From assembly GCA_023061495.1 (NCBI GenBank), contig GCA_023061495.1_3643.1: DNA of 64,000 nt. One strand, written 5' to 3'. Position 1 is the first letter of the stretch; each line of letters starts with the position of its first letter. A model generated the notes under the pieces. That model searched no databases and was not told where the DNA came from. It saw only the letters and a list, made by a program, of their open reading frames with translations. The translations under genes were made by a program, and so were the position numbers. Source of the DNA: Escherichia coli (GTDB lineage Bacteria; Pseudomonadota; Gammaproteobacteria; Enterobacterales; Enterobacteriaceae). Shown one piece after another: positions 7,642 to 35,615 of the stretch.

Positions 7642-7670
7642 TTGACAATGCACTATAATCATGGTAAAAT
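7642..7670 (+). promoter_or_regulatory. sigma70-like promoter with extended -10 (TTGACA, 17 bp, TGgTAAAAT)
   Basis: -35 TTGACA 7642-7647, spacer 17, TG 7662-7663, -10 TAAAAT 7665-7670; precedes tail chaperone genes. Confidence 0.6.
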
Positions 7671-7713
7671 ACACAAATATGGTGCACAACATGACTAATA
7701 AGGATGCTATAAA

Positions 7714-10914: not shown

Positions 10915-10947
10915 ATTTAGATGGTATCGGAGTGTCCTGGAGAGGTT

Positions 10948-21000: not shown

Positions 21001-22477
21001 AAATGCCAACGCCACAGCGGAAAGACACTACCCACCAGGGAAGCAGATGGCTGGTACGCTGATCGTGCTTAGAAACTCTGCCAACGAAGGTACAGGTTGT
21101 GTCCAGATATATAAAATGTATCTTGGGGGAACGTGGGAAAGGTACTATAATAACACTGGCAGCGGAATGAACTGGAGCCCTTGGAAGAGAACGAGCTTCC
21201 CAGAAAGTACAACTGCCCCAGTCATGCCTGACCTGTGGTTGCCTTTAACCTCTAATCTAAAACCTGTACTAGGTGAAGGTGAGATGGTGTTCTCCAGACC
21301 TTCTACAGCAACATATTTCACTAAGCGCGGTGTCATGGCTGTTGCACAGGCAAACCAACCACGTTTCGAAAGAGATGGTCTGCTCATTGAAGGTCAAAGG
21401 ACAAATCTGATGCTTAACAGTGAAGACCCGAGCAAATGGGGAGCCCAGTCACAGATTACGGTCGGCAACACTGTAACAAACACCAACGGCACAAAAGGTG
21501 CAAGATTTACAGTAAGCAACGTATCCGGTGTAGAAACAACGGCGTTAAACCTGGCTACAGTTCCAGCCACCCGAGGTGCAGATGTAACAGGTGCTGAGAA
21601 ATTTTGTACTGGATCTATTATTGCAAGAGGTGGTAAAGCTCACCAGAGACTGCGTGTAAGATTCGACATGTATAACGGATCCACCACAGTATTCCAGGGT
21701 GATGCCTATGTTAACCTGTCAACACTTGAAGTTAAAACAACAGGTGGTGCAGCTGGGAGAATTAAAGTAAAAGCTGAGAGATGGCAAACAGCCGGACCTG
21801 CTTGGATAAGGGTTGTTGCTACGTTTGAGGCAGTGGCCTCTGACATGAATATTGGGTGCCAGTTCCAGATTGCCCCGCCGGAGGGTTCTCAACACGCCGC
21901 AGGGGATTGGATTGACGTCGCAATACCTCAGTTTGAGTTAGGATCTTGTGAGTCCTCGTTTATCCCTACAGGGTCTTCACCAGTGACTAGGGCAGCAGAC
22001 CTTTGTAAATTCCCAATGACTGATAATTTAGCACCTAGACCGTTCACCATCGCCGCTACTGTGGATGCCAACTGGAGAGGTTGGGGAAAAGCTCCTAACG
22101 CAGCTCCTAGGGTTATTGATACAGAGGGTCGCGCTGCATTTATCATGGGGTTTGGCTCTGCAGCGAATATTGCAGAAGATGGTTATCCATATTGCGATAT
22201 TGGTGGTTCAAACAGACGTGTTTATGAGATGGCTAAAGCACGTAAGTTGAAGATGGGGTTCAGGATAAAAGAAGATGGTAAAACCTGCTCTTTTGCCAAC
22301 GGTCTGGTGAGCACGGAAACACAATCTTCTTGGGAATTCCTGGCAGGAGGCGCTCTCATCCGTCTCGGCGGTCAAACAGCGACAGGAGAAAGACATTTGT
22401 TTGGTCATATTAAAGATGTAAGAGTTTGGAACTCTGCATTGACCGATACCCAGCTTATGATGGAGAGTGTTGAATAA
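18041..22477 (+). CDS. long tail fibre protein with N-terminal anchor module, internal duplication and C-terminal LamG/ConA-like lectin motif
   Basis: 1478 aa; RBS AGGAGAAAG; anchor shared with 14738 gene; duplicated segment (...GHLIVWQNNANGGTGCRQEYY... vs ...GTLIVLRNSANEGTGCVQIYK...); C-terminal LFGHIKDVRVWNSALTDTQL. Confidence 0.6.
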   Translation: MADIKVVRIESLPATTAVTEDDYLVVQQPDLTRRVKIGDVVHVDGTVSHVISFKEGGKLNGPMDFAYFEEEDLYLRWKGEFPHTVPALSSPYADGGITDAAWMVYTDPSLREELESTIGASMIMTAEGQSVQDVMDVTVQTANDAKALAQRVDFGTVHTVGDVIHLVNFVGPAVIEEGRTTNYPSEAAGEKFLNGVVSRRDTTTVDGIFRGATSGAMYTIAVTNGVATTKRIALRDEFKRLEANNPTRTVIRAGDDLNTAGYLQLDATGRWGMWNQQTASWQPLAIEQGGTGARDAAGVRINIGAFYKQRAALEANFNINNLTGNQDGIYYQPMTANATEANGYPAGSGAGHLIVWQNNANGGTGCRQEYYPFSNVDVWYLRTYQANTNQWTAWQPMVRPRNDDTFRSHIGLGKNNSPAFGHLYLAQYSGDVKSASGILHGDKYNTDGVLEHGYRIYSEVRNDNKAWLTIHLHKGAKGSETHRYLGFREDGVLDCPKYMQVGDLNGQLANWGLGEWIRSSGAERGFWGSKKAAKMVVWDGGMDESGNGTLEWGVYNNRKAKWEPLPQAAGGTGATTLADAQNLFKVPVAAGVKDFLTLPRTAGMEDGKYYPIIVRTDPYYAPTTGTDITIVTRSSSGSDPMNCATLQCHYRTGGWTDRGDSFQGVINFYQNEKAILGCVSPTRGKQEYVAFYVESRAFPVSVYTSRNVLEVFTRENDWQVGNVTNNQDGVKFCAPLASDNLSLAIKGDDVTNTRILAEFKGTPGFYTGGSTDRHYIGTPDRMVLMSKTEMPPVEMWYNGLNYICPGSQTTRKALFSNAGFQAASEGTGDLINNTFTSKCGNGARLQGQAEFRSTPEAGQVIVRDVVGSAHRFYNFNKDGTFSAPGGFVCHTGADWNNQFGPNNPSKILAGNVNGPEGSMVVGGLSVAFSGNYAFQMAGSLDQLYTRSIERGNHRAWNKVIQHRGQGLGTSDLNDYKADREGIYHQEANANATAERHYPPGKQMAGTLIVLRNSANEGTGCVQIYKMYLGGTWERYYNNTGSGMNWSPWKRTSFPESTTAPVMPDLWLPLTSNLKPVLGEGEMVFSRPSTATYFTKRGVMAVAQANQPRFERDGLLIEGQRTNLMLNSEDPSKWGAQSQITVGNTVTNTNGTKGARFTVSNVSGVETTALNLATVPATRGADVTGAEKFCTGSIIARGGKAHQRLRVRFDMYNGSTTVFQGDAYVNLSTLEVKTTGGAAGRIKVKAERWQTAGPAWIRVVATFEAVASDMNIGCQFQIAPPEGSQHAAGDWIDVAIPQFELGSCESSFIPTGSSPVTRAADLCKFPMTDNLAPRPFTIAATVDANWRGWGKAPNAAPRVIDTEGRAAFIMGFGSAANIAEDGYPYCDIGGSNRRVYEMAKARKLKMGFRIKEDGKTCSFANGLVSTETQSSWEFLAGGALIRLGGQTATGERHLFGHIKDVRVWNSALTDTQLMMESVE

Positions 22478-22809
22478 TGAATACTTTTACCCTTGGGTTT
22501 ACTGGTAGGGAGGATTTTAACGGTTTCATGGACGAAATCGGCTTTTACGAGAACGAGGTGTTGCAAAACACCCTTCTTGTAGAGGTTGTCGGGTTTATTT
22601 ACACAGAAACTGAAGACACTTATGAGGCCGAGGACGAGTTTGGCAACATGGTTGTCTACCCAGTTTGCGAGAAAAGTAAATTGTTTTATGTCAACGTTCT
22701 GGCTCTAGACGAGGATGCAGAAAACATCGTCTCGAAAAGCGGAAAAGTTGTAGATCCGATAAGGTTGAACATGTTCGACCAATCAGTATCTACCTTGGAA
22801 GCACTTTAA
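22477..22809 (+). CDS. hypothetical small acidic protein (possible fibre chaperone)
   Basis: 110 aa, start overlaps fibre stop (TAATG); followed by terminator. Confidence 0.4.
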   Translation: MNTFTLGFTGREDFNGFMDEIGFYENEVLQNTLLVEVVGFIYTETEDTYEAEDEFGNMVVYPVCEKSKLFYVNVLALDEDAENIVSKSGKVVDPIRLNMFDQSVSTLEAL

Positions 22810-22815
22810 AGTATT

Positions 22816-22841
22816 GCCCTCGCTTCGGCGGGGGCTTTTTG
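22816..22841 (+). terminator. rho-independent terminator with UUCG tetraloop
   Basis: GCCCTCGC-TTCG-GCGGGGGC hairpin followed by TTTTT; same hairpin family as 28735 and 54667. Confidence 0.7.
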
Positions 22842-22847
22842 TTTGTA

Positions 22848-22876
22848 TTGCGTATTAACTTAAAATCTGGTAAAAT
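22848..22876 (+). promoter_or_regulatory. sigma70-like promoter with extended -10 (TTGCGT, 17 bp, TGgTAAAAT)
   Basis: -35 TTGCGT 22848-22853, TG 22868-22869, -10 TAAAAT 22871-22876. Confidence 0.45.
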
Positions 22877-22906
22877 AACTATCATAATTGTTAACCGGGA
22901 GGCACA

Positions 22907-23497
22907 ATGTTTTTATGGGAAAGGCCTAGATACCTTCCAGATATTAGACTGGAGCTACTGGCAGACATCGTTACATTTAAAAGCCCGTTTACAGGTAAGA
23001 CGCAAAAAGTCACCTATGCCACGCCTAACTGGAAAGGCACTTTGACGGTTTCCAATATCAGCGAGTCTCAGTTGTTGGAGCTTAAAAGTTTTGTTGATCA
23101 GGTTTACAAAGATGGAAATATTTTTCTTATCAAGGCTTATGGGCATTCAGTGACCTCCAACGAGCCAATCGCTCTTGGACCAACTGGTAACGACGATTTT
23201 TTGAAGACGGTTGGTTGGGAGCCTAACAGGGATATAGCCAGAGCTGGGGATAAAATATCTGTCAATGATGAGTTGAAAGTGGTGACAGCCTCAGTACGAA
23301 GTGATGGTGTTGGGGCCGCTGTTATAAACATATCCCCAAGACTTAGGAAACCTATTGCCGCAGGGGATACCATGAAAATAATAACTCAATCTCCGAAGGG
23401 TAGATTTCATATCCGAGATCTTTATAAAATTAAGCAAAAGGTTGATGCTATGCAGAAAGGTGATAATATAGTTATCAACTTCTTTGAGGATTTCTAA
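22907..23497 (+). CDS. hypothetical distal-tail structural protein
   Basis: 196 aa, RBS GGGAGG; first gene of a run resembling a lambda-like tail-tip module. Confidence 0.4.
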   Translation: MFLWERPRYLPDIRLELLADIVTFKSPFTGKTQKVTYATPNWKGTLTVSNISESQLLELKSFVDQVYKDGNIFLIKAYGHSVTSNEPIALGPTGNDDFLKTVGWEPNRDIARAGDKISVNDELKVVTASVRSDGVGAAVINISPRLRKPIAAGDTMKIITQSPKGRFHIRDLYKIKQKVDAMQKGDNIVINFFEDF

Positions 23498-23498
23498 G

Positions 23499-24050
23499 AT
23501 GATAAGAGCGCCATTAGATAATTTATTTCTTGAAAAGCTAGAGCTTGATGGTGTTGAGATCTTAATTGCTGCAAAGCTAGAGCTGCCAACAGGGACTGTC
23601 AGGGTGTGCTCAGGAACTGGTGTTGTGGTTATTGAGGGGCAACATTTTATAGGGATAGGTGGATCAGCAACATTGACTGCTGTGTCTGAGAAAGATGCCA
23701 CCAACTTCGGATCTGTGGTAGCAACATTGAACGGGTTTGATCCTAAATATGTTGGCGATCTACTGAAGACGGAGTACTCTGGTTGCCGTGCCACGTTATA
23801 TATCACCGCTATGGAGAATGGTTTACCTGTCACAACTAATGGCTTGTTTGACGGCCTTATAACAGACATGGCTATTCAGACAGGGGAGAATAGTGCTCTG
23901 TCCATATCCATCTCTTCCATCTTCAACAGCTGGTTAAGAGGTTTTCCTTATCGATACACAGAGGAAAGCCATAGCTCAAGAAACGATAACGACAGATTTT
24001 TTAAATATGTGGATCAGGTGGCGAGCCGCCCGATCATTTGGGAGGTTTAA
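23499..24050 (+). CDS. hypothetical distal-tail structural protein
   Basis: ATG 23499 preceded by GAGGA (23486-23490), chosen over the track's TTG at 23484; 183 aa. Confidence 0.4.
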   Translation: MIRAPLDNLFLEKLELDGVEILIAAKLELPTGTVRVCSGTGVVVIEGQHFIGIGGSATLTAVSEKDATNFGSVVATLNGFDPKYVGDLLKTEYSGCRATLYITAMENGLPVTTNGLFDGLITDMAIQTGENSALSISISSIFNSWLRGFPYRYTEESHSSRNDNDRFFKYVDQVASRPIIWEV

Positions 24051-24475
24051 TGAGCACACATCCTCGTTTAGTAGACTGGCAAGAAAGGTTGTGGAAAGTA
24101 TTTGACGAAGAAGCCACCGTCCCGTTTGAATGGGGATTCCACGATTGTTGCACTTTTGCTGCTAAGTGTGTTGATGCCCAATACGGAACAGATTTTCTTT
24201 CTAACTTTGAAGGAACGTATAAAACAGAGTTGGAAAGCAAGAGATGGTGCATGCTTCGTTTCAAAACCACACACCTACCTACTGTTTTTGATCTCTTTTT
24301 GACTCGACTGGATACTCCTAAACAGGTCCAGCGTGGTGATATTGTTATTTTCGAAGGTCTGAACGGCCTCACCGCTGGTGTGTTTTGGAACAACCAGATT
24401 TGGGCGAAAGGTGATAAAGGGATCTTTACGTTCGATATGAAAGATTCTATCGTTGTTGATGTCTGGAGGTATTAA
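24050..24475 (+). CDS. tail-tip protein with Cys-containing motif, possible NlpC/P60-like (lambda gpK-like; speculative)
   Basis: ATG 24050 preceded by GGGAGG, chosen over the track's TTG at 24038; motif FEWGFHDCCTFAAKCVD; directly upstream of the J-like gene. Confidence 0.35.
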   Translation: MSTHPRLVDWQERLWKVFDEEATVPFEWGFHDCCTFAAKCVDAQYGTDFLSNFEGTYKTELESKRWCMLRFKTTHLPTVFDLFLTRLDTPKQVQRGDIVIFEGLNGLTAGVFWNNQIWAKGDKGIFTFDMKDSIVVDVWRY

Positions 24476-25131
24476 TGCCAATTGCAATGATTGATAACAT
24501 CGTTGCTTCTGCAAGATCTTCAAGTTATGACTGGAACGCATCCAAGGCAGCTCTGGCTGACAGCCTGAACACTGTTACCACCAGAACTCTGGATAAGATT
24601 TTCGAGGGCAACAAATCTTACAGAAGTCAGCAAGATAGACAAAAGCTTCTCAGATCTTCTGCTGCACCTTGCTCTGTAGTATATGGAAAGACACGCACAT
24701 CTGGATTGCTTGCGTTTTTGGAGCAGGACAGAGACAGAACCCTTCATTGTGCTATTGTTCTTGCCAATCACCCTCTGGAAGGTATAGAAGATATACTTAT
24801 CGACGGTAATCCTATTTCCTCGTATGGAGATTTGGTATCGTGGGAGCTGCATAACGACAGAAAAACCTCTGATCCTTTCATGGGCACACACTGCCCATCG
24901 TGGTCACCGGACATGATAGGTAGAGGGATCAGTTGGCTACGAGTCAGCTTCAGGTTTGACCCTAACAAGTTTCCTTTTGGGTTGCCAAACGTCACACTCG
25001 TCAAGGTTGGTAAAAAATGCNNNNNNNNNNNNNNNNNNNNNNNNNNNNNNNNNNNNNNNNNNNNNNNNNNNNNNNNNNNNNNNNNNNNNNNNNNNNNNNN
25101 NNNNNNNNNNNNNNNNAAAAAAATGCTATGA
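24475..25131 (+). CDS. tail-tip protein; either a separate gene or the N-terminal part of the J-like protein (unresolved because of N-run)
   Basis: RBS GGAGG then ATG 24475; frame-1 ORF runs into the N-run at 25021-25116 and stops four codons after it; the downstream J-like ORF is in another frame. Confidence 0.35.
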   Translation: MPIAMIDNIVASARSSSYDWNASKAALADSLNTVTTRTLDKIFEGNKSYRSQQDRQKLLRSSAAPCSVVYGKTRTSGLLAFLEQDRDRTLHCAIVLANHPLEGIEDILIDGNPISSYGDLVSWELHNDRKTSDPFMGTHCPSWSPDMIGRGISWLRVSFRFDPNKFPFGLPNVTLVKVGKKCXXXXXXXXXXXXXXXXXXXXXXXXXXXXXXXXKKML

Positions 25132-28100
25132 TCCTCGCACCAGTAAAGAGGTGTATACCAATAACGCTGCCTTGGTGATTCTGGACTATTTAAGAACATA
25201 CCTTAAATGTCCTGACGAAACCATCAACTGGGAGTCCTTCAAGGAGGCTGCCAACATATGCGACGAGGCTGTAAGAAACGCAGACGGAACCAGCGAGCGT
25301 CGTTACACCATTAATGGTGAGTTTGACATGGATGAAGCACCAGCGAGTATTATGGCAGAAATGCTGAAAGCTTGTGGTGCAGATCTTAGCTATGTAGCTG
25401 GTAAGTATGGTCTGCTGGTAGGTGCATACTATGGCCCGGCAACAATGACACTGAGTGAGGACTGTGTTTGCGGTGAGGTTAAGATCTATCCGGAAGCCTC
25501 TTTCGACAAGAGATCGAACACAATAACTGGCAGATTCACTAGTCCAACCAAAGGGTATTCTGAAACAGATTTTCCATCAGTGTTTGTCCCAGAGTGGATA
25601 GAGAAGGATGGAGAAAGAAAGATAATTGATATAGATTATCGTTTTGTTACCAGCCCTTATCAAGCTCAGCGTGTTTCTGCAATCTTCTTAAGACGTGCCC
25701 GAGCTGGCAGGATTATTGAAGTAACCTGCAATATGCGAGGTTTTAAATTTAAACCTGGGCGTTACGTTACGATGAATCTTCCAAGTATTGGTATAGTGGG
25801 CCAAGAAATGAGGGTTCTTGAATGGGAGTTCACCAAAAAGGGCGGTGTCAAGGTAAAACTCCGTCAAGATGCTAAAGAGTGGAATGATGCCACAGGGCAA
25901 CTTCCGGATTCTGGAGATGTGGATATTCCGATATCCCCGTCCGGCGTAGCTCAACCGCAAAACTTCAGATACTCTGTTCTTCAAGCTGGGGAAGTAACTC
26001 ATGGTGTTTTGGCTTGGGACAACGTTGGAACTTATGCTCAAAATATTGTGCAGGTAAGAAAGAACGGAGAGATTATTTGGACAGCACAGACAGTTGAGCA
26101 GTTTGTCCGCGTAGAAGGATTGACCAAAGGGTCATACACAGCAACCGTGGTTGCAACATCTTATAAAGGTGGTGTATCTCCAGAAGCTTACTGCGAGTTT
26201 AACATTCAAGCACCTGAAGCTCCTGTTTCTGTAGAAGTTAAGCAGGGATACTTTGCTATCACCTTGATTCCGCACAGCAGGGACTTAGCAAGTGTAAGCA
26301 CCCAGTATGATTTTTGGACATCTGGTATGACAAGGTTGCCGGACACAAGTGATGCAACCGTTACTTCAAAAGCCACCCGTATGGGTGTTGGTTCAACTTG
26401 GACATCTGAAGGTCTGCAGAACGATAAGATTTATTATTGGTATATTCGAACCACAAACGCTTTTGGTAGTTCTCAGTTTGTAGAATGCGCTGCACGCTGC
26501 TACACCTCTATTGAAGATTTGATGCCTCAGATAGATGCTGAATTTAAAAAGACAGAAACTTATAAAGAGTTGATGAGCACTTTAGATTCCTCTATCGAGG
26601 AGGTTGAAAATCGTGTCACAGAACTTAACAGGTACATGGATGGTAGAGTTGACGAGGCTTTTGACCGCATGGAAGGTGAGTTCTCTAGAGTAGACAAGCT
26701 GTATGCTCAGTTGGGGGATAGGGTTGGAATATTCATCCAAGAAACCCACGACAACTTCCAGGACGTTAATGGAACGCTTACCACTCTAGACCAGAAACTG
26801 GTAGCCACTCAGAACAAGTTTGCAGATGATCTTTCTAAAGAAAGTGGTAAGCTGACTTCTCTAATACAGACCACCAACAAAGCTACAACCGATCTGTTAA
26901 ATCAGAAAACTGAAGCTTTGGACGAGAAGATTGTTTCAACAAGGGGTGAATTGGAAGATGCTTTGGCACAGGAAAGCTCTGAGCTGAACTCTCTGATTGT
27001 TTCAACCAATAAAACGACTACAGATCTCCTTAATCGGAAAACCGAGGCTTTAGACAATAAGCTGACAGCAACGAAAGGTGAGTTGACCAACAATCTGCAA
27101 AATGAGAGTGCTAAACTATCATCCTTGATTGAGTCAACCAACAAATCCACCACTGATCTTCTTAATAAGAAAACAGAGGCGTTGGATGAAAAACTGGTTG
27201 CTGCACAGGGCGAGTTGACTGAGCAGATCGGAGATGTTGAAAAAGGCTATCTGGCTGGTGATAAGAGCCTAGAGGGCAAGTTGAATACTCAAAGATCTGA
27301 GTTGGATGCGAGCATTCTGAGCACTAACCAGGCCACTGTGGACTTGCTGAACAGAACTTCTGAGACTCTTGACCAGAAGATTAGCCAGACCAACGCCACA
27401 GTGTCCAAAAACTACACCACGCTTGATGGTAAGATAAACACCGCCAAGTCTGATCTTAATACGTTGATTTCTACCACCAACAAGGCCACAACTGACCTAT
27501 TGAATCAGAAAACGGCAGCTTTGACTGAGCAGTTAACCACTGCTAAAGGGCAGATTACAACCAACACCAATAACATTACCGGGTTGGATAATAAGCTGAC
27601 TCAGACTAAGAAAGAATTGTCTGCGAATATTTCTGAAACTAATAAGTCTACTGTTGACCTTATTAATGGCACAGCGTCAGCTATTCGTCAAGAACTTGCT
27701 GTTGCTAAGCAGGAGATTATTGATGATGTTGGAGATGTGACCGAACTCAGAGCTGCAGTGGCTACAACATCTAAGGCTGTGACCGACTTAGAGGGCAAAG
27801 TAAATGCTCAATGGGGCACAAAAATACAGGTAGACTCCGCAGGGAATAAGTATGTGGCAGGTATCCAGTTAGGCATGGAAGGCTCTGGAGGCCAAGTTCA
27901 GTCATATTTCATGGTTAGCGCAAACAACTTTGCGGTATACAACCCAGGCAATGGAACAGCAACCCTTGCTTTCGCAATCAAGAACAACCAAGCGTTCTTG
28001 AAAGACGCTTTTATAGAGAACGGCACGATCTCTTCTGCCAAGATCGCGCAAGAAATTTCGTCAAACAACTACGATGGCAACGGGTACCACAAATACGGTT

Positions 28101-28726
28101 GGTATATTAACAAGAACGGGCACGCCCAGTTTATGGATGTGTGGGTGAAAGGTAACATCAACGCTAGTGCAGGTAACTTCACAGGGGCAGTTAACGCCAC
28201 CAGTGGTACCTTCCGTGGAGATGTTTATGCCAACAATGGTAGCTTTAGAGGGACCATAGATGCAACAGGAGGTACATTCCGTGGACGTGTAGAAGCTTCC
28301 GTTATCCGTGCTAACCAGTTCGAAGGTGCGATTGTTGCACACAGGACTTACGGAGATTGTGCTCCAGTATATAACTCGCAGCAAAGGGTTTGCCGTTGGA
28401 GGTGGAGATATGTGGACAACGTGCAAGGCCAAGGTAAAAACGTAACATTCTTCTTTAAACTGAACGGTACTCGTGCCAACTCTCAACTAAATGCGTGGAT
28501 AGCTGGTCACCAACTACTTGCTGGCAAGAAGTACGGAAACGATAACGATGGCATGTGTGCAGTTGGGATAACAGGTCTAGGTGAACAAACTATAGACATT
28601 ATTATCGAGATTTACACACCATGGTCAACAGGGAACGTGACAGGCATTACAATATCTTGTCCTACAGTCGTTGTAAGTCGTTCTAACTCAAGTTTCCAAG
28701 GTCCTTGGAATGAGTCTCACGACTAA
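24956..28726 (+). CDS. host-specificity / central tail fibre protein, lambda gpJ-like (true start uncertain, probably within or before the N-run)
   Basis: About 1250 codons; post-mask region and the C-terminal block (YVAGIQLGMEGSGGQVQSYFMVSANNFAVYNPGNGTA...) resemble lambda J as recalled; internal coiled-coil repeat array; UUCG terminator downstream. Confidence 0.55.
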   Translation: MTLTSFLLGCQTSHSSRLVKNXXXXXXXXXXXXXXXXXXXXXXXXXXXXXXXXXKKCYDPRTSKEVYTNNAALVILDYLRTYLKCPDETINWESFKEAANICDEAVRNADGTSERRYTINGEFDMDEAPASIMAEMLKACGADLSYVAGKYGLLVGAYYGPATMTLSEDCVCGEVKIYPEASFDKRSNTITGRFTSPTKGYSETDFPSVFVPEWIEKDGERKIIDIDYRFVTSPYQAQRVSAIFLRRARAGRIIEVTCNMRGFKFKPGRYVTMNLPSIGIVGQEMRVLEWEFTKKGGVKVKLRQDAKEWNDATGQLPDSGDVDIPISPSGVAQPQNFRYSVLQAGEVTHGVLAWDNVGTYAQNIVQVRKNGEIIWTAQTVEQFVRVEGLTKGSYTATVVATSYKGGVSPEAYCEFNIQAPEAPVSVEVKQGYFAITLIPHSRDLASVSTQYDFWTSGMTRLPDTSDATVTSKATRMGVGSTWTSEGLQNDKIYYWYIRTTNAFGSSQFVECAARCYTSIEDLMPQIDAEFKKTETYKELMSTLDSSIEEVENRVTELNRYMDGRVDEAFDRMEGEFSRVDKLYAQLGDRVGIFIQETHDNFQDVNGTLTTLDQKLVATQNKFADDLSKESGKLTSLIQTTNKATTDLLNQKTEALDEKIVSTRGELEDALAQESSELNSLIVSTNKTTTDLLNRKTEALDNKLTATKGELTNNLQNESAKLSSLIESTNKSTTDLLNKKTEALDEKLVAAQGELTEQIGDVEKGYLAGDKSLEGKLNTQRSELDASILSTNQATVDLLNRTSETLDQKISQTNATVSKNYTTLDGKINTAKSDLNTLISTTNKATTDLLNQKTAALTEQLTTAKGQITTNTNNITGLDNKLTQTKKELSANISETNKSTVDLINGTASAIRQELAVAKQEIIDDVGDVTELRAAVATTSKAVTDLEGKVNAQWGTKIQVDSAGNKYVAGIQLGMEGSGGQVQSYFMVSANNFAVYNPGNGTATLAFAIKNNQAFLKDAFIENGTISSAKIAQEISSNNYDGNGYHKYGWYINKNGHAQFMDVWVKGNINASAGNFTGAVNATSGTFRGDVYANNGSFRGTIDATGGTFRGRVEASVIRANQFEGAIVAHRTYGDCAPVYNSQQRVCRWRWRYVDNVQGQGKNVTFFFKLNGTRANSQLNAWIAGHQLLAGKKYGNDNDGMCAVGITGLGEQTIDIIIEIYTPWSTGNVTGITISCPTVVVSRSNSSFQGPWNESHD
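25021..25116. other. run of 96 N (masked or unresolved sequence)
   Basis: Literal N characters; the reading frame changes across this run, unlike the other three N-runs. Confidence 0.95.
26850..27790 (+). repeat. tandem coding repeats (about six degenerate 40-60-aa coiled-coil units) inside the J-like gene
   Basis: Recurring units such as L-x-S-L-I-x-T-T-N-K-x-T-T-D-L-L-N-x-K-T-E-A-L-D-x-K-L visible in the translation. Confidence 0.6.
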
Positions 28727-28734
28727 CAGTAAAG

Positions 28735-28760
28735 CCCCGCTTCGGCGGGGTTTATTTTTA
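28735..28760 (+). terminator. rho-independent terminator with UUCG tetraloop
   Basis: CCCCGC-TTCG-GCGGGG followed by TTTATTTTTA. Confidence 0.7.
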
Positions 28761-28768
28761 TGCTCAGA

Positions 28769-28797
28769 TTGACTATTGTTACAAAATTTGGTAAAAT
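28769..28797 (+). promoter_or_regulatory. sigma70-like promoter with extended -10 (TTGACT, 17 bp, TGgTAAAAT)
   Basis: -35 TTGACT 28769-28774, TG 28789-28790, -10 TAAAAT 28792-28797. Confidence 0.6.
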
Positions 28798-28830
28798 ACC
28801 TTGTAGAGATTTTCATACCGGAGGAGTGAC

Positions 28831-30321
28831 GTGGCTAAGTATGGATTGACAGAGGCTGGTTTCGTTATACCAACCCTAAATGACCTAATCGTTGAAACTA
28901 AGCAAAGCCTGATCCGTGCTTTTGGCGAAAACTTCAACGTACAGAGTAACTCCGTTGCAGATAAGCTGACCACTATCTTCAACGAGCGAGAGTATCAACT
29001 TATTCTTATGGCAGCATCTGTATACGCATCGCAGACGCTGTATGGGGCAGAAGGTATTTACCTGGATGAGCTTCTTGGAAGACAGGGTATTTACCGAAGA
29101 GGCCGTTCTAAATCATCAGGTACCTGCCAGTTGACAATCAACACAACTGTGCCATACAATATGATTTATGATTCCAAAACTTATACGCTGGACAGTGGCA
29201 ACTTTGTTCTTAGCAACGATGTGCAGGTGGCGGGAAATCTTATTGCTCACAGAATAAACGCTCCAGACCTAAGAATTGGGAAATACAACTTTCAAATTAC
29301 CAACCAGACAGACGGAAGTATCAAAACAAAAAGTCTGGTTTTAACAGATAAGGCTCTGGACTCTTCTGATTTGCCAAGCTTTTACGGTGAGATTAAGCAA
29401 TTCATTGTCGATAATACAACCCTGCTGAATGATGATTTAATTCAGATAGATATGTTGACAGGGACGTTGTGGATAGGGTACAATTCGAATCTTGATCAAG
29501 TTGGACTTAATAGCAGGGTAGATTTCAGAGTATCCCCGATTGTAGGGGAAAGAACTATCACCCTAGATGTTATCGCTAACGAGGCTGGTGAGCTGTCAAG
29601 AGAGGCAGAAACCGTGACAACAATGTCACCTACTCCCAGTGGATTTATCAAGCTTACCAACCGAGAAAGATTCAATGAGGGCAGGGATGTTGAGAAAGAC
29701 TCTGAGTATCGCTTAAGAGCTTCCAGCACTAAACAGCTGACATCTAAAGCTACCCGTCCTGCAATTCTTAGCGCTGTAAGCGAGGTGAAAGGTGTTGAGA
29801 AAGTAAGAGTGTTCTCTAACAACACCGATAAAACGGATGCGAAAGGTATACCACCTTATAAGTTTCAAGTGGTGGTGTTTGGTGGTGCAACAGAGGATAT
29901 CTGTCAGGCGCTGTATCAAACCATAGCTTGCACAAACAGAACTTATGGGAATATCTTCTACGATATTACCACATCAGACGGTCAGACTGAAAGGATTTAT
30001 TACTCCAAGGCAAATACCTACCGCCTAGATGTAAGAATTACCTACTCAGGTGCTGCGCTTTCCACAACCGAAAAAGATGCCATTGTAGAGGCTCTTTTGC
30101 AGGTTGTTAACGGACTGGATGTTGCAGATACGTTGTACAATATCCAATTGGTTGGTGCTGCATCAGCTGCTGTGTCAATAGGCAGATTTAACAGACTTGT
30201 GATTCAAGTAAAACCTGTGGGAGCCTCTGATGAAGCTTACACTACAAACGATATTGTTGCAAACATGACTGAGGTGTTTGACCTAGACGAAAGTAATATA
30301 ACTTTCCAACAAACTATTTAA
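28831..30321 (+). CDS. putative baseplate wedge protein (Baseplate_J / gp6-like)
   Basis: GTG start 28831 preceded by GGAGGAG; 496 aa; N-terminal region fits the baseplate J-like pattern as recalled. Confidence 0.5.
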   Translation: MAKYGLTEAGFVIPTLNDLIVETKQSLIRAFGENFNVQSNSVADKLTTIFNEREYQLILMAASVYASQTLYGAEGIYLDELLGRQGIYRRGRSKSSGTCQLTINTTVPYNMIYDSKTYTLDSGNFVLSNDVQVAGNLIAHRINAPDLRIGKYNFQITNQTDGSIKTKSLVLTDKALDSSDLPSFYGEIKQFIVDNTTLLNDDLIQIDMLTGTLWIGYNSNLDQVGLNSRVDFRVSPIVGERTITLDVIANEAGELSREAETVTTMSPTPSGFIKLTNRERFNEGRDVEKDSEYRLRASSTKQLTSKATRPAILSAVSEVKGVEKVRVFSNNTDKTDAKGIPPYKFQVVVFGGATEDICQALYQTIACTNRTYGNIFYDITTSDGQTERIYYSKANTYRLDVRITYSGAALSTTEKDAIVEALLQVVNGLDVADTLYNIQLVGAASAAVSIGRFNRLVIQVKPVGASDEAYTTNDIVANMTEVFDLDESNITFQQTI

Positions 30322-30332: not shown

Positions 30333-31019
30333 ATGGCAGAGATTAAGTCGGATGTCAACCACATCCACACTCTGCCAGATTTTGTTCAGGGAGGTCTTGA
30401 TTACCTGCCTGGAGATTTTCTGGCTGAGAAGGTTAATTTAGTCACATTCTTAACCGTGTACCTTAAAAGGTTGGAGGATGTTGATAAAATGCTGGTAGGC
30501 TTGGCTGAAGGAAGATTGCTTAACAATGCCAGCGGGAGATACCTTGACGAAGTTGGTAATCAACTCGGTATTCTTCGGAATGGGCTTTCAGATGCGGATT
30601 TTCGTGCTACCCTGGTTATTCAGCAAGCAGCAGCATCAAGGGGTGGGACTCGCGAAGATGTCATCTCCACCTTGCGACAATTGTTCGGAAGAGACAATTT
30701 CGATACGTGGAAAGGTGACAATTTCAGGTTTGACATAAACATTAGAAAAACTTGCTTTGACATATTGCAGTCTATCGACCAGATCTTAGATATGCTGCCA
30801 TTGCCTTGTCATTTGCGTCTTACGGAGTCGCAAGGGCAAGCTTTTGGTTTTGAAGGGGACTCTACAACTCTCGGCTTCGGATCAGTGTGGGAAGAAAACC
30901 AGTTCGGGGTTGGTGGGCTGGCTACTTTGTTATATGTTCCTGACGTAAGACCTGATTGGGATACCACAACCATTTATTGTGAAAGTATTACAGTAAACGC
31001 AACTAGACAGGAGGGTTAA
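30333..31019 (+). CDS. putative baseplate protein (P2 gpI / Mu gp48-like, tentative)
   Basis: 228 aa directly after the J-like baseplate gene; motif YLDEVGNQLGILRNGLSDADFR. Confidence 0.4.
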   Translation: MAEIKSDVNHIHTLPDFVQGGLDYLPGDFLAEKVNLVTFLTVYLKRLEDVDKMLVGLAEGRLLNNASGRYLDEVGNQLGILRNGLSDADFRATLVIQQAAASRGGTREDVISTLRQLFGRDNFDTWKGDNFRFDINIRKTCFDILQSIDQILDMLPLPCHLRLTESQGQAFGFEGDSTTLGFGSVWEENQFGVGGLATLLYVPDVRPDWDTTTIYCESITVNATRQEG

Positions 31020-33091
31020 TGGCAACAGCTGTTTTTAAACCTTACCGTGATTACTCTACAATGGCTGCACGGTTTCATTACCGCACAGTTCAGGATACTG
31101 CAGTTCCGGGTAGGGATTATGATCATGTTGAGGGCGATGTAACTATCCCGGTTGGGGCAACCAGTATTGAGATCCCTGTAGAAATTGTTGACAAATTGCC
31201 AAACAGGTTGCCAAGAAGCTTCTTTATGGAGTTTTCATCAAACTCCCAAGGGGTTATGATTGGAACACAAAGAGCGAAATGTACAATAGTTTCAGATGAG
31301 AATCTTGACAGAATATCTTGGGATACCGTTGAGGAGAGAATGTTTCACCCAAGATACTGGGTTACAACCACACAGCAGACTGAAAGCACCTGTATTGTTG
31401 CGGATAATAACTGCTGTATTAACCGTTTAGTGTCAAGAACATATGGGGGCATGGCTGGGTGCATTTGGGAAACAGTTGACAAGTATGACCATTTCGGCAT
31501 TGGATTTGATGATCACTACGAGATGAGAAACACCAAGCTTTGGTTCAGAATGTCAATAACCAATGCCAGCAACTTCTCCACCCCTGAAAAGATGATTATG
31601 ACTGTAGACCTTGTTGATGGTACAATCATCTATGTTCCTTTAGCTCAATATGCTGTCAGCATCTCAGAGGATAAGAATGTTGCAGAAATTCATATTGATT
31701 TCGAGGACTGCGTCGGGATGGACCAGAACAACAACATGATGGGTGTTGATCCTCGGCAGGTGAGAAGGATTCTAATACCACTTATGCCTAAAGATTGGGT
31801 AGGTAATAGCACAGACCCGAGAACGGAAAATGTAGAGTGTGAGTTGCGTCTAGATCTTCTTCAGCCGGATACAGGCTGGAAAATGATGCAACTTAACAAT
31901 ATTCAGGTGAAAGAACACGATGTTGGGATCTGCACAGCATATGACGATATGTGGAACGTATCCCCTTTAAGGGTGTTGAGCAATATCAAGCGTCTGGGCT
32001 ATACAGGAACCATAAACCATTATGTTGGTATGAGCCATTATTATGACTACACATGGTCAGGAACCCAATGGTCTATAAACAAAACAGGAGCTCTAAACGC
32101 TGCAGCTTATAAATGGCATGATGATTTTATGTACAATGCCAAACGACATGACTTCGACGTTATGCAGTCTGTAAGCTTTGAGCTTTATAGCGATGCCTGT
32201 CCGTTGGAATGGACCCAGAGAGACTGGAACGATAACTATGCTAAAACAGGCTATACGCCTTGTAGTTACCTCCTGTCTCCAACCATTGAAGAGGGCATGA
32301 ATTTCCTTACTGCAGTATTTAAGAATTTTGCATCAGCCGCTATGAGAAACAACCTGCCAGTGATTATGCAGATTGGTGAACCGTGGTGGTGGTTCAATAC
32401 CGATACTCGTAAGCCTTGTATTTATGACTACCCTACAAAGCAGGCGTTTTATGATGAGACTGGTGAATATGCACTAGACATTGGGACTATTGACGATCCT
32501 AAAACTGGCGGTGTTTATGACAAGTATGTAGCATTTTGTCGTGGTAAGCTTGGCGCTCGTATTGCAGCCATTTCAAAGGCAATAAAAGCACACGCTGCAT
32601 CGGCTCAGATGACAGCTTTACTGTTTTTCCCCACTATTATGGAAACCGAGCTTACGCAAAAACTGAACCTTGCTGACCAATATAAAAAGGAAGCAGGTGC
32701 TCTTGATTTCTTCTGCACTGAGTGCTACGATTGGGTGATGCAGGGAGGTATTGAAAAGGCAAAAGAGTCTGTAAACATACCTATCGTTAAGTTAGGTTGG
32801 AAACCGTCTGAAATACAATACCTTGCAGGGTTCGTTCCTAGCAAAGAGCTTGCTCCGGTATATGGCTACGACCCAACCAGGAATTACCAAGAATTTTTAT
32901 GGAGATGTATTTGCGGAAACATGGCAACCATAGAGTATAGATACCCTGAGGTAAAACAGTATGTGTGGGCATACCCGCAAGTAATGTCTGACAGCATCAC
33001 TGTTACCGCCAGAGATTCTACTGTTCTGCATATGGGGCAGGTTGCTCTGAAAGGGTATGTAGAAGATGTTGTTCCGCCAGACTTCTCATAA
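31019..33091 (+). CDS. tail-associated protein with Calx-beta-like N-terminal motif, possible enzymatic tailspike
   Basis: 690 aa; start overlaps upstream stop; N-terminal DYDHVEGDVTIPVGATSIEIPVEIVD resembles a Calx-beta motif; Trp-rich remainder. Confidence 0.45.
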   Translation: MATAVFKPYRDYSTMAARFHYRTVQDTAVPGRDYDHVEGDVTIPVGATSIEIPVEIVDKLPNRLPRSFFMEFSSNSQGVMIGTQRAKCTIVSDENLDRISWDTVEERMFHPRYWVTTTQQTESTCIVADNNCCINRLVSRTYGGMAGCIWETVDKYDHFGIGFDDHYEMRNTKLWFRMSITNASNFSTPEKMIMTVDLVDGTIIYVPLAQYAVSISEDKNVAEIHIDFEDCVGMDQNNNMMGVDPRQVRRILIPLMPKDWVGNSTDPRTENVECELRLDLLQPDTGWKMMQLNNIQVKEHDVGICTAYDDMWNVSPLRVLSNIKRLGYTGTINHYVGMSHYYDYTWSGTQWSINKTGALNAAAYKWHDDFMYNAKRHDFDVMQSVSFELYSDACPLEWTQRDWNDNYAKTGYTPCSYLLSPTIEEGMNFLTAVFKNFASAAMRNNLPVIMQIGEPWWWFNTDTRKPCIYDYPTKQAFYDETGEYALDIGTIDDPKTGGVYDKYVAFCRGKLGARIAAISKAIKAHAASAQMTALLFFPTIMETELTQKLNLADQYKKEAGALDFFCTECYDWVMQGGIEKAKESVNIPIVKLGWKPSEIQYLAGFVPSKELAPVYGYDPTRNYQEFLWRCICGNMATIEYRYPEVKQYVWAYPQVMSDSITVTARDSTVLHMGQVALKGYVEDVVPPDFS

Positions 33092-35128: not shown

Positions 35129-35159
35129 AGTCCTTAAGGAATTTTCTCAGGAGAACGTG

Positions 35160-35615
35160 ATGACTAAACCAGTTATCCCTCTTGATATTTGGGCCAATCA
35201 GGATGTTGTGCTTGAAAATACGGGAGAATTGAATAAGTCCCAACCAAAAAAAGAAGAGAGATTGAAAGGTTGGGATATGACACAAAGAGTGGCATGTGAG
35301 GTTGTTAACTTTGAACTTCACATGCTTTCTGCGTGNNNNNNNNNNNNNNNNNNNNNNNNNNNNNNNNNNNNNNNNNNNNNNNNNNNNNNNNNNNNNNNNN
35401 NNNNNNNNNNNNNNNNNNNNNNNNNNNNNNNGGGTGTTGAAGATGTAAGGATAGCAAACCGCTTCAGAACCACCTACAGAGAATCAAGAGTATACCCTGG
35501 GCATGTAATGTGCTCCGGCAATTACGCCTATAAACACCCGTATCAAGGTGACTATTGGACTGGTGCTATTCAAAAATTTGTAAACGGTCAATGGATTACC
35601 ATATCTTATGCTTAA
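35160..35615 (+). CDS. short tail fibre paralogue (middle masked by N)
   Basis: ATG 35160 preceded by CAGGAGA; shares N- and C-terminal motifs (YWTGAIQKFVNGQWITISYA) with the 33104 gene; frame preserved across a 96-nt N-run. Confidence 0.5.
   Translation: MTKPVIPLDIWANQDVVLENTGELNKSQPKKEERLKGWDMTQRVACEVVNFELHMLSAXXXXXXXXXXXXXXXXXXXXXXXXXXXXXXXXXGVEDVRIANRFRTTYRESRVYPGHVMCSGNYAYKHPYQGDYWTGAIQKFVNGQWITISYA
35336..35431. other. run of 96 N (masked or unresolved sequence) inside a CDS
   Basis: Literal N characters; flanking ORF remains in frame. Confidence 0.95.

Follow-up and report, generated by a model that had tools for sequence, protein, structure and literature searches.

A four-gene tail-tip cassette among contractile-tail genes

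The window analysed here, a stretch of 64,000 nucleotides from an Escherichia coli assembly, derives from a Vequintavirus, an rV5-like E. coli myophage. Nucleotide identity of the region to Vequintavirus genomes is 91-97%. An earlier note on this DNA had described a contractile-tail gene set, which was confirmed by the sheath, tube, H-T-H spike, gp25-like initiator and Baseplate_J wedge genes. The tail and baseplate genes of the window are as follows:

4049-5425, sheath
5436-5909, tube
7714-8187, tail assembly chaperone
8502-10841, tape measure
10921-11832, tube initiator, Dit_like
11845-12225, plug
12225-13223, hub
13223-13900, spike, with a C-terminal H-T-H apex motif
13913-14728, gp25-like sheath initiator
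28831-30321, Baseplate_J wedge

At positions 22907-28726, four tightly coupled genes make up a single transcription unit, which we identify from sequence comparisons as a complete siphophage tail-tip cassette within a myophage. The cassette occupies the variable fibre slot that extends from the sheath-initiator gene to the wedge genes. It has fibre genes on one side and wedge genes on the other, and lies 12 kb away from the myophage tape-measure gene. Its genes and flanking signals are:

22816-22835, plus strand, intrinsic terminator GCCCTCGC-TTCG-GCGGGGGC followed by a T run, closing the upstream fibre operon directly before the cassette
22860-22888, plus strand, promoter-like site with the phage motif TGGTAAAATA (22868-22877)
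22907-23497, plus strand, Dit, siphophage-type distal tail protein of 196 aa (phrog_1302 'distal tail protein', E-value of 3.7e-49)
23499-24050, plus strand, small hub subunit of 183 aa (phrog_2048 'tail protein', E-value of 1.5e-67)
24050-24475, plus strand, DUF6950 protein of 141 aa (Pfam PF22262, E-value of 2.7e-34)
24475-28726, plus strand, J-type hub and central-fibre protein, one gene, 1381 aa after gap removal (phrog_31 'central tail fiber J', E-value of 2.7e-140)
28732-28753, plus strand, intrinsic terminator AAGCCCCGC-TTCG-GCGGGGTTT followed by a T run, directly 3' of the J stop codon

The limits previously proposed for this module were exact, with the first gene starting at 22907 and the stop codon of the J-like gene ending at 28726. 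Terminators are found on both flanks, and the genes are translationally coupled through TAA-g-ATG and TAATG junctions. A GGGAGG ribosome-binding site lies between the promoter-like site and the ATG at 22907. The TGGTAAAATA motif occurs four times in the window (0.19 occurrences expected by chance), always on the plus strand and in the gap just upstream of a gene, so that the cassette has it in common with three other gene starts. It is the phage's own putative late-promoter motif, carried by the cassette.

The split of the J gene and the integrity of the cassette

Two overlapping ORFs, 24475-25131 and 24956-28726, represent a single J gene that is cut by a scaffold join:

25021-25126, no strand, assembly gap consisting of 96 N (25021-25116) and then a duplicated 10-nt overlap (25117-25126)

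Two close relatives have uninterrupted sequence across the gap position (GGTAAAAAATGCTATGATCC), and deleting 25021-25126 restores a 1381-aa ORF, equal in length to the J of phage NHEP1. The split is therefore an assembly-gap artefact and not biology. The J-like protein described earlier is real in its homology, but its apparent division into two ORFs is not. Position 24475, previously given as the end of the small genes, is the true start of J.

Since the window contains four scaffold joins, siphophage genes could in principle have been mis-joined to a myophage scaffold in a mixed sample. This is refuted, and its probability is close to nil: neither cassette border has a gap, and both junctions recur in over 100 complete genomes that were sequenced independently, rV5 and the BASEL isolates among them. 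The cassette was found at the same position in approximately 117 independent Vequintavirus genomes and is no chance pattern.

All four ORFs are intact in two compared relatives. The dN/dS values of the four cassette genes range from 0.00 to 0.07, and those of core baseplate genes are alike, showing that the cassette is kept intact by strong purifying selection. These values contradict a decaying or selfish passenger, left behind by recombination with a siphophage and without any contribution to the virion. Such a passenger might be suspected because the J frame looks broken in the window and sister genera dispense with the cassette. However, the frame break is the scaffold gap, and the intact ORFs, the presence of the region in so many genomes, the late-promoter motif, the coupled gene junctions and the J peptides found in rV5 virions all make it very unlikely.

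Three small genes encode homologs of siphophage tip proteins

The proteins encoded by 22907-24475 are homologous to siphophage tip proteins. Dit is 31-32% identical to the product of the first gene past the tape-measure gene in CAjan and 9g. Its family profile aligned to T5 pb9 over the full length (hhalign probability 61%, E-value of 8e-5, 162 co-linear columns), and weak pb9 matches were found in the PDB. Its dN/dS is approximately 0.02. Dit forms a hexameric ring in siphophages, where it normally stacks on the tail tube.

The 183-aa hub subunit appears to be the counterpart of hub domain HDI of T5 pb3, which in lambda is part of gpL. It is 39-40% identical to its CAjan and 9g counterparts. 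In the PDB, its family profile matched T5 pb3 residues 15-176 (E-value of 2.7e-4), and hhalign aligned the family to the pb3 N-terminus, including the RYTDE motif (probability 90%, E-value of 1.5e-6). No conserved cysteines were found in the HDI protein, and the gpL-type four-Cys iron-sulfur motif is absent. Its dN/dS is approximately 0.01. The equivalence of gpL to pb3 HDI and the other domain correspondences between lambda and T5 follow PMC10721106.

The DUF6950 protein is 45-47% identical to its counterparts in CAjan and 9g and has an invariant D-C motif, bearing out the Cys-motif K-like protein proposed earlier, as well as an R-G-D motif. Weak NLPC_P60 matches were detected in 7 of 21 family members. 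In an hhalign comparison with lambda K the DC and (P/R)GD motifs aligned, at an E-value of 0.005 and a probability of 7%. Both the NlpC/P60 link and that of Dit to T5 pb9 are modest at the sequence level. The protein has no JAB domain and no conserved histidine, and its dN/dS is approximately 0.05. It is K-like, probably with a divergent NlpC/P60 fold, and its role is probably in assembly and not as a component of the virion.

Domain architecture of J

Six segments were delineated in the J protein:

24475-24615, plus strand, polar N-terminal segment specific to Vequintavirus, residues 1-47
24616-25900, plus strand, hub domains, aa 48-440, spanning the assembly gap
26057-26536, plus strand, two Ig/FN3 domains, residues 493-652 (Ig_J PF24421, E-value of 3e-5; Ig_J_second PF24489, E-value of 2e-31)
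26528-27754, plus strand, helical rod, residues ~650-1058, inside the proline-free stretch 650-1121
27755-28177, plus strand, tail-tip fibre domain Phage_Tail_Tip, residues 1059-1199 (Pfam PF09327, E-value of 5e-39)
28178-28726, plus strand, C-terminal domain, residues 1200-1381 and stop codon

The J gene matched lambda J in the PDB with an E-value of 6.7e-28, and aa 48-867 are 50% identical to the J proteins of CAjan and 9g, rising to 59% in the hub domains. The N-terminal family profile matched residues 263-717 of T5 and DT57C pb3 (E-values of 4e-27 to 7e-29) and residues 265-482 of lambda J (E-value of 6.7e-6). The similarity thus extends beyond FN3 and coiled-coil segments to the hub domains at aa 48-440. 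Of the profile comparisons to lambda tip proteins suggested in the earlier note, that for J was supportive and gpM and gpL gave no match; comparisons of HDI and Dit to T5 tip proteins were supportive.

BLAST alignments of J to siphophage proteins start at residue 48. Where Vequintavirus J is polar, nearly all siphophage homologs have a hydrophobic segment of 40-70 aa rich in Ala, Gly, Ile and Val. The maximum 19-residue Kyte-Doolittle hydropathy is 0.31 in the J N-terminus, versus 1.0-2.4 in homologs with a complete N-terminus. No anchor motif in common with the phage's other fibres was found in this segment.

The rod contains six repeats of the motif (S/E)TN(K/Q)xT(T/V)DL(L/I)N, at a spacing of ~44-62 aa, and a 102-aa length difference among phages falls inside it. 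No tandem repeat was found at the DNA level. The rod matched the helical families Apolipoprotein, DUF7217 and Fib_alpha, and with a helical stretch of 400-470 residues we estimate its length at ~60-70 nm. The Phage_Tail_Tip domain had PDB matches to the C-terminal fibre of lambda J and to the F2 pyocin fibre. The C-terminal domain, the putative receptor-binding end, is 39% identical to the 9g J C-terminus. Past its first ~65 aa, similarity elsewhere is weak (e.g., 28% to HK97 J), and it does not contain the lambda Ig_GpJ_C domain.

Relation to known tail tips and origin of the cassette

The four cassette genes correspond, in the same order, with nearly the same sizes and at 31-59% identity, to the four genes that CAjan and 9g carry downstream of their tape-measure gene. 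In these Queuovirinae (9g, gp65-gp68; CAjan/Seurat, AJT60500-60503), the same order is seen, with sizes (cassette/siphophage) of 196/194, 183/194 and 141/130-144 aa followed by J. The 9g/CAjan module directly follows the tape-measure gene and forms the end of the DNA channel, whereas the Vequintavirus module has fibre genes and wedge genes as its neighbours. In 9g/CAjan the first 40-50 aa of J are hydrophobic; in Vequintavirus a polar segment replaces them, and the rod is ~340 aa longer.

The nearest solved relatives of the cassette are found in the T5 tip (Dit pb9, hub pb3, central fibre pb4; 7ZHJ, 7ZQB), in which two FN3 domains follow the hub as in Vequintavirus J. T5 pb3 combines all four hub domains and the plug in one polypeptide, whereas the Vequintavirus hub is split over two genes with the DUF6950 gene between them. 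T5 has no K-like gene, and its fibre pb4 and receptor-binding pb5 are separate, while the Vequintavirus fibre is fused to the hub. Lambda (gpM, gpL, gpK, gpI, gpJ; 8IYK) follows the same gene logic of Dit, HDI subunit, NlpC/P60-type K and J, and its hub is likewise divided between a small protein and J (PMC10721106). Both J proteins contain Ig_J, Ig_J_second, Phage_Tail_Tip and the hub region. The label 'lambda-like' given earlier fits only loosely: no similarity to lambda gpM (PF05939) or gpL (PF05100) was detected, the cassette has neither a gpI gene nor the JAB domain that lambda K carries, and FNIII-A and the LamB-binding domain of lambda are missing from J. The type of the module is that of 9g/CAjan, with T5 pb9 and pb3 as nearest solved structures.

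Baseplates of phi92 and other Vequintavirinae/Stephanstirmvirinae, the 'Swiss army knife' adsorption apparatus, carry multiple fibres. Their backbone has the same proteins, encoded in the same order (sheath, tube, tape measure, tube initiator, plug, hub, spike, sheath initiator, wedge and short tail fibre), and a variable fibre slot likewise runs from sheath initiator to wedge. This slot holds enzymatic tailspikes and fibres but no Dit, HDI, DUF6950 or J gene, and the phi92 cryo-EM baseplate contains no proteins of these types. Mydovirus BIS47 and the phi92-like PaulScherrer have homologs of every core tail and baseplate gene and of none of the four cassette genes.

A tblastn search with the K-like protein returned 118 records with at least 90% identity, all of 129-142 kb among the matches listed. 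The next matches had at most 49% identity and were, among the matches listed, phage records of 25-84 kb. Among 80 contigs retrieved from IMG/VR, many of which measured 20-60 kb, most had the same gene order. In a neighbour-joining tree, the J hub of the window was sister to those of CAjan and 9g, within the siphophage clade. Because the cassette matches siphophages in order and size, and related myophages share the core genes while all four cassette genes are absent, comparison shows the cassette as horizontally acquired by a Vequintavirus ancestor, the donor being a siphophage relative of the Queuovirinae (9g, CAjan). Among myophages it appears restricted to Vequintavirus, every sequenced member of which keeps it.

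The movement of receptor-binding cassettes among podo-, myo- and siphophages has a precedent in host-recognition modules described as common to the Alteromonas schitovirus A5, the myovirus V22 and siphophages (PMC10579305). The unit exchanged there is a tail fibre with its chaperone, whereas in Vequintavirus it is an entire tip complex that forms a hub and includes the ring-forming proteins of the tube end.

The cassette as a probable accessory host-binding fibre

Besides the cassette, the phage encodes a tube initiator (Dit_like), a plug, a hub and an H-x-H spike of its own. We call this spike iron-tipped, as it keeps the apex motif that coordinates iron in phi92, where the spike tip is described as membrane-piercing. 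Mass spectrometry of rV5 virions detected the J ortholog gp37 (4 peptides, 4.2% coverage), and one of its peptides, GYSETDFPSVFVPEWIEK, is identical in the J of the window. The corresponding list of 19 proteins includes some unlikely virion components. In cryo-EM of the Vequintavirus phages Bas49 and Bas54, only three fibre types were resolved near the baseplate, none of which was assigned to a J-like protein.

We consider it probable that the acquired siphophage tail-tip cassette as a whole works as an accessory host-binding fibre. Because J has lost its hydrophobic N-terminus and the myophage retains its own hub and spike, we infer that the cassette most likely provides an extra fibre that does not conduct DNA; loss of the hydrophobic segment fits the loss of a plug or membrane role. 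The four products would assemble as in siphophages into a closed conical knob, with J3 and HDI3 under a Dit6 ring, but without tail-tube capping or DNA gating. The knob would serve as the anchor of a long, thin, trimeric fibre, seated either on the myophage baseplate or on another fibre, and the adsorption apparatus, already rich in fibres, would gain a further receptor-binding device. We know of nothing that explains how a Dit ring would dock on a myophage baseplate, and this counts against our interpretation, as do the low mass-spectrometry coverage of rV5 gp37, the three fibre types of the Bas49 and Bas54 maps with none assigned to J, and the negative search for a common anchor motif in the J N-terminus.

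The mosaic reading of the earlier note stands in that a siphophage-type tip module ending in J lies inside myophage baseplate genes. Its suggestion of a J-like central fibre grafted onto the baseplate was not established, as the phage keeps a full hub and an iron-tipped spike and the changed J N-terminus argues against a channel-closing role. In such an arrangement, a Dit6-HDI3-J3 cone would sit on the tail axis beneath the hub, with the small iron-tipped spike in the lumen, the place taken in a siphophage by the end of the tape-measure protein. The J rod would then form one fibre on the axis, which would sense the receptor and open either before contraction or while it proceeds. Selection on all ring-forming parts (Dit, HDI and HDII) seems more than a side fibre needs, and homologous surfaces for stacking are available because the tube initiator of the myophage is also Dit_like. 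Yet the H-x-H spike apex is retained, sister genera that have this hub and spike manage without the cassette, and the N-terminus that is hydrophobic in siphophage homologs, which we would place in the lumen by comparison with lambda gpI (PMC10721106), has been replaced. Moreover, rV5 micrographs report five to six thin fibres rather than one, and no axial fibre is reported in the Bas49 and Bas54 maps. A true central fibre is therefore quite improbable.

Under another reading, which we regard as unlikely, only J is structural: a J trimer would attach via its hub domains, and the Dit-like, HDI and DUF6950 proteins would be chaperones or scaffolds for J folding, absent from the virion. This would agree with the rV5 mass spectrometry, in which gp37 but not the three small proteins (gp38-40) was detected, and with the proposal of the RBPseg authors that hub-like fibre N-termini need other baseplate proteins to trimerise. 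Mass spectrometry of lambda virions likewise did not detect gpK, a protein that its authors suggest is non-structural (PMC10721106). However, the rV5 analysis was shallow and missed many known baseplate proteins, all solved siphophage tips contain Dit and the HDI subunit as structural components in stoichiometric amounts (PMC10721106), and the dN/dS values of the small genes are as low as those of the wedge and hub genes.

A siphophage-type tail-tip cassette in a contractile-tailed phage

The DNA around the cassette belongs to a Vequintavirus. Over 100 complete genomes of rV5-like myophages of E. coli, including vB_EcoM-ECP32, NHEP1 and the BASEL phage EmilHeitz (Bas49), match a 6.4-kb region around it at 91-97% nucleotide identity. 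Vequintaviruses are among the most often isolated E. coli phages and are therapy candidates. The cassette region is also matched by 18 unannotated 'Campylobacter phage' records (host C. jejuni; GenBank MG065644-MG065690). Among the matches listed, these share 91-94% identity and have Vequintavirus-sized genomes (135-143 kb), and their host label is probably wrong.

The tail and baseplate genes in the window follow the gene order of the phi92 baseplate, which was recently solved by cryo-EM (PMC13450770). The earlier note had placed a lambda-like tail-tip module among them at 22907-28726, and these coordinates proved exact for a run of four genes. The features are as follows.

4049-5425, + strand: tail sheath (DUF3383)
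5436-5909, + strand: tail tube
7714-8187, + strand: tail assembly chaperone
8502-10841, + strand: tape measure protein of the myophage set
10921-11832, + strand: tube initiator (Pfam Dit_like, PF21821, E = 1e-22)
11845-12225, + strand: plug (Pam3_gp18)
12225-13223, + strand: hub (phrog_196)
13223-13900, + strand: spike (phi92-spike N-domain, C-terminal H-T-H motif)
13913-14728, + strand: gp25-like sheath initiator (phrog_120)
After the sheath initiator and before the cassette and wedge genes, + strand: several fibre genes
22907-23497, + strand: Dit-like gene (phrog_1302 'distal tail protein', E = 3.7e-49)
23499-24050, + strand: HDI gene (PHROGs 'tail protein', E = 1.5e-67)
24050-24475, + strand: K-like gene (Pfam DUF6950, E = 2.7e-34)
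24475-28726, + strand: J gene (PHROGs 'central tail fiber J', E = 2.7e-140)
28831-30321 (Baseplate_J) and 30333-31019, + strand: wedge genes

The J gene appears in the window as two overlapping ORFs, a split caused solely by an assembly join at 25021-25126 (96 N plus a 10-nt duplicated overlap). Two relatives are uninterrupted across this site, and removing the join yields a J of 1381 aa, the length found in NHEP1. There are four such runs of N, each of 94-98 nt (14611-14704, 25021-25116, 35336-35431 and 42436-42533), and comparison with two close relatives gives true gaps of -5, -10, +684 and -1 nt. All four are scaffold joins and not masked biology, which marks the window as part of a draft assembly in which contigs were joined without trimming their short overlaps. 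The same comparison led us to reject the first candidate considered for the N runs, a small mobile element with a target-site duplication. The third join conceals about 684 nt of a second short-tail-fibre paralogue, so the ORF at 35157-35615 is artificially shortened.

The four genes encode a Dit protein, a split hub and a central fibre

For profile comparisons we built family alignments from siphophage and IMG/VR loci carrying the four-gene set. The Dit family aligned co-linearly over its full length with T5 pb9 (hhalign, E = 8e-5, probability 61%), and the Dit-like gene is the positional orthologue of 9g gp65, annotated as 'distal tail protein'. The family of the HDI protein, a small hub subunit of 183 aa, matched residues 15-176 of T5 pb3 in a profile search of the PDB (E = 2.7e-4) and the pb3 N-terminus by hhalign (probability 90%, E = 1.5e-6), with a common RYTD[DE] motif. 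In the J family, the N-terminal hub region of 440 residues matched pb3 residues 263-717 (E = 4e-27) and lambda J residues 265-482 (E = 6.7e-6), and Pfam detected Ig_J, Ig_J_second and Phage_Tail_Tip domains in J. As residues 1 to about 166 of pb3 constitute hub domain HDI (PMC10721106), these matches identify the products as Dit, an HDI subunit equivalent to gpL, a K-like protein, and a J carrying HDII-IV. Three features of a T5/9g-type module are present, namely a Dit homologue, an HDI domain, which in such modules is a tube-like beta-sandwich and can be a small protein of its own or begin the hub protein, and HDII-HDIV with FN3 and a central fibre. The likeness of J reaches beyond fibronectin and coiled-coil segments to include the hub, and the products of the three preceding genes resemble siphophage tip proteins; the earlier note had named the opposite outcome on both points as grounds for abandoning its proposal.

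All 21 members of the family of the 141-aa K-like protein carry DUF6950, and seven have weak NLPC_P60 matches (best E = 0.032). An hhalign alignment with lambda K, used as a single sequence, had an E-value of 0.005 but a probability of 7%; it pairs the invariant (W)G-x-x-D-C and (Q)R-G-D of the family with the gpK motifs FEHGVTDC and AQPGD. In gpK, a JAB/MPN domain is combined with an NlpC/P60 domain that has a Cys-His catalytic pair; a JAB domain and a conserved histidine are both missing from the family, and NCBIfam searches returned nothing relevant. Single-sequence phmmer searches of the PDB with the three small proteins gave no meaningful match, and Pfam searches of Dit and HDI family members gave isolated, non-significant hints of RcGTA-type DUF2460 (E = 0.079) and Phage_phiJL001_Gp84_N (E = 0.14). 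Further homologue searches, one of them with a concatenated Dit, HDI and K alignment, found close relatives or three marginal matches only. AlphaFold2 models of the HDI-like and Dit-like proteins, made from alignments of near-identical sequences only, were unusable (mean pLDDT 31 and 38).

Compared with lambda itself, the description 'lambda-like' holds for the organisation of the module only: the gpM and gpL families went undetected, and there is neither a gpI gene nor an FNIII-A or LamB-binding domain. None of 20 Dit family members matched the gpM family (Phage_min_tail, PF05939) in Pfam, and none of 25 HDI family members matched the gpL family (PF05100). The hhalign probabilities were 0.6% for the Dit family against lambda M and 0.1% for the HDI family against lambda L, both negatives having reduced power because each lambda protein (M, L and K) entered the comparison as one sequence (the gpL sequences retrieved from IMG/VR were all at least 98% identical to lambda). 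The HDI protein has no conserved cysteine and therefore lacks the four-Cys [4Fe-4S] domain of gpL; judged through pb3, the two would be equivalent in HDI function only. For gpI (Lambda_tail_I, PF06805) we found no fifth gene and no match in J or its neighbours. From the gpJ domain set, J has Ig_J, Ig_J_second and Phage_Tail_Tip, FNIII-A and the receptor-binding domain Ig_GpJ_C being absent, and Phage-tail_3 was weakly seen, only in the CAjan and 9g orthologues. At the level of profiles, the J hub is homologous to that of lambda J.

The cassette is probably a siphophage import restricted to Vequintavirus

After Vequintavirus itself, the nearest relatives of J are found in Queuovirinae siphophages with genomes of 57-64 kb, namely CAjan, Seurat and 9g (55-61% identity, tblastn). 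CAjan and 9g carry four genes straight after the tape-measure gene in the same order as the cassette and with nearly equal sizes, at identities of 32% (Dit), 40% (HDI), 45-47% (K) and 50% (J). This order was found again in most of 80 IMG/VR contigs retrieved, many of which are 20-60 kb long. Unlike in CAjan and 9g, the cassette does not directly follow a tape-measure gene of the same module; it is preceded by fibre genes and a terminator, with the myophage tape measure 12 kb upstream.

Core genes and cassette differ in their distribution. Among related myophages, similarity of the wedge protein is graded, from 60% in Mydovirus and Seunavirus through 51% in Certrevirus to 32% in phi92-like phages. 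The K-like protein has 118 matches of at least 90% identity, all of them, among the matches listed, in records of 129-142 kb; the next matches have at most 49% identity and, among those listed, come from phage records of 25-84 kb. Every core tail and baseplate gene has a homologue in Mydovirus BIS47 and in phi92-like PaulScherrer, and none of the four cassette genes had a tblastn match (E ≤ 1e-3) in either. In both, different fibre genes occupy the cassette's slot between sheath initiator and wedge, and none of the cassette proteins is found among those resolved in the phi92 baseplate by cryo-EM. When the J hub domains were compared by neighbour joining, the window came out as sister to CAjan and 9g, nested within the siphophage clade. 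With the distribution taken from sampled BLAST listings and two outgroup genomes, the simplest reading of these comparisons is a single transfer from a Queuovirinae-like siphophage to the Vequintavirus ancestor. The G+C content of the cassette is no different from that of its flanks. Two Dit-type proteins of separate lineages occur in the window, the phage's own tube initiator (10921-11832) and the apparently imported siphophage Dit (22907-23497).

Signs that the cassette is in use

The cassette genes are translationally coupled (junctions TAA-g-ATG, TAATG and TAATG), and strong intrinsic terminators directly flank them at 22816-22835 and 28732-28753. In the gap upstream of the cassette lies the 10-mer TGGTAAAATA (22868-22877, + strand). 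It occurs four times in the window, against 0.19 expected (2499-2508, 7662-7671, 22868-22877 and 28789-28798, all + strand), each copy in the gap immediately before a structural gene of that strand, the starts of the chaperone and wedge operons included. TGGTAAAATA is probably the extended -10 core of phage late promoters.

The dN/dS values from comparison with NHEP1 and EmilHeitz are 0.02 (Dit), 0.00-0.01 (HDI), 0.05-0.06 (K) and 0.06-0.07 (J), and the hub, spike and wedge genes have values of 0.01-0.05. This selection analysis, together with junctions conserved in more than 100 genomes, contradicts two other explanations of the cassette, a decaying remnant and a chimera created by the assembly. 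Virion mass spectrometry of rV5 detected the J orthologue gp37, with a coverage of only 4.2%, but not gp38-40 (PMC3606486). One alternative, in which J would be the only structural product of the cassette, is compatible with this shallow proteomics.

J has a replaced N-terminus and a rod of variable length

Nearly all siphophage J homologues begin with a strongly hydrophobic segment of 40-70 residues that is rich in Ala, Gly, Ile and Val; its maximum hydropathy is 1.0-2.4 in those with a complete N-terminus. Unlike these, the first 47 residues of Vequintavirus J are polar (maximum hydropathy 0.31). Lambda gpI has a similarly hydrophobic stretch in the tip lumen that is part of the plug, and its authors suggest contact with the membrane (PMC10721106). 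The cassette thus lacks the hydrophobic plug or membrane-active segment found in lambda gpI, the T5 pb3 plug and the 9g-type J N-terminus. By analogy, the replaced N-terminus fits the loss of a plug or channel role. No anchor motif common to the new N-terminus and other proteins of the window was found.

Residues 650-1121 of J form a proline-free helical stretch with six repeats of a conserved TN(K/Q)xT(T/V)DL(L/I)N core, which at about 0.15 nm per residue would make a rod of an estimated 60-70 nm; no tandem repeats were found in it at the DNA level. J has 1381 aa in the window and NHEP1 versus 1279 aa in EmilHeitz and rV5. This 102-aa difference lies within the rod repeat region (26663-27145, residues 696-856), which means that members of the genus differ in fibre length. 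For the C-terminal domain, there is no close relative whose receptor is known. That J targets LptD, as in some small siphophages, was considered and dropped for this reason and because lptD mutants in BASEL affected no phages beyond seven siphophages.

A possible off-axis position for the tip complex

The phage's own axial set is complete, with a Dit_like tube initiator, plug, hub and iron-tipped spike, and sister genera function with that set alone. An axial version of the suggestion in the earlier note, a J-like central fibre grafted onto a myovirus-type baseplate, is disfavoured: the spike retains its apex motif, the J N-terminus is altered, and the reported number of fibres also speaks against it. 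Given the phage's own axial set and the polar J N-terminus, we propose that the four products would still assemble into a closed J3-HDI3-Dit6 knob, which would anchor an accessory trimeric fibre instead of forming the end of the DNA channel.

Where such a knob might sit is a more speculative matter. Cryo-EM of Bas49 and Bas54 located three fibre types, placing only three of nine annotated fibre proteins, and left density without assignment at the distal head of one fibre class. These maps leave room for a tip complex without showing its presence. One tentative idea, which we consider rather doubtful, is a free-standing siphophage-type tip (Dit ring, split hub and J) mounted off-axis on the contractile baseplate or else carried at the far tip of another fibre, with the Dit ring serving as a socket for a trimeric partner and not for the tail tube. 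For mounting at a fibre end, the density at the head of the one Bas49/Bas54 fibre class would be an example of a candidate site. If this were true, it would be a new mode of fibre anchoring, in which a DNA-channel end-cap became a receptor-binding organelle, and off-axis Dit and hub rings would be re-usable as fibre anchors.

Parts of the cassette have been noticed before. Annotation pipelines already name its genes 'distal tail protein' and 'central tail fiber J'; rV5 gp37 was tied in 2013 to COG4733, with a Mu gp44-like hub match (PMC3606486); and RBPseg described the J-type fibre as having an 'N-terminal region common in central tail fibers'. In the literature searched we found only passing remarks, none treating the four genes as one imported, genus-restricted siphophage tip module with a changed J N-terminus. 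Exchange of fibre cassettes across morphotypes is known (PMC10579305), and a whole hub-forming complex moved into and kept by a myophage would be a new variation on it. Recognising a single imported siphophage tip module in a 'lateral tail fibre' gene and its three upstream neighbours predicts a concrete sub-complex, Dit6-HDI3-J3, for maps and proteomics. It would also offer a dated, directional case in which an entire hub-forming complex, beyond a fibre, passed from a non-contractile to a contractile tail. As a self-contained unit from putative promoter to terminator, the cassette could be swapped or deleted for host-range engineering.

Variable genes around the cassette

Synonymous divergence of the Dit-like gene from NHEP1 and EmilHeitz is 0.66-0.74, compared with 0.08-0.29 for the small neighbouring genes and up to 0.58 for J against EmilHeitz. 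The Dit-like gene, which adjoins an allelically variable upstream fibre gene, may lie on a recombination boundary. Between that 1478-aa fibre gene and the cassette is a 110-aa ORF (22477-22809, + strand; phrog_1361, function unknown). It is present in EmilHeitz and absent from NHEP1, which also has a shorter upstream fibre allele. The ORF seems to travel with this allele and not with the cassette, and is perhaps a chaperone of the upstream fibre.

Downstream of the wedge genes, the 690-aa product of 31019-33091 (+ strand) combines a Calx-beta domain with both the N-terminal and the TIM-barrel domain of the N4 'non-contractile tail sheath protein' (PF23845, E = 7e-80). It is 42% identical to a PaulScherrer fibre annotated with glycosidase and deacetylase domains, and appears to be the fibre type tied in published work to the ECA/NGR glycan receptor. 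The gene is downstream of the wedge genes in Vequintavirus and upstream of them in PaulScherrer.

Between the tail tube and tail assembly chaperone genes, 6015-7640 (+ strand) encodes a 541-aa HNH/homing endonuclease (phrog_559, E = 1e-110; weak treble-clef zinc finger). No homologue turned up when the tail and baseplate regions of NHEP1, BIS47 and PaulScherrer were compared, and the gene was probably inserted into the tail operon recently, as a homing endonuclease.
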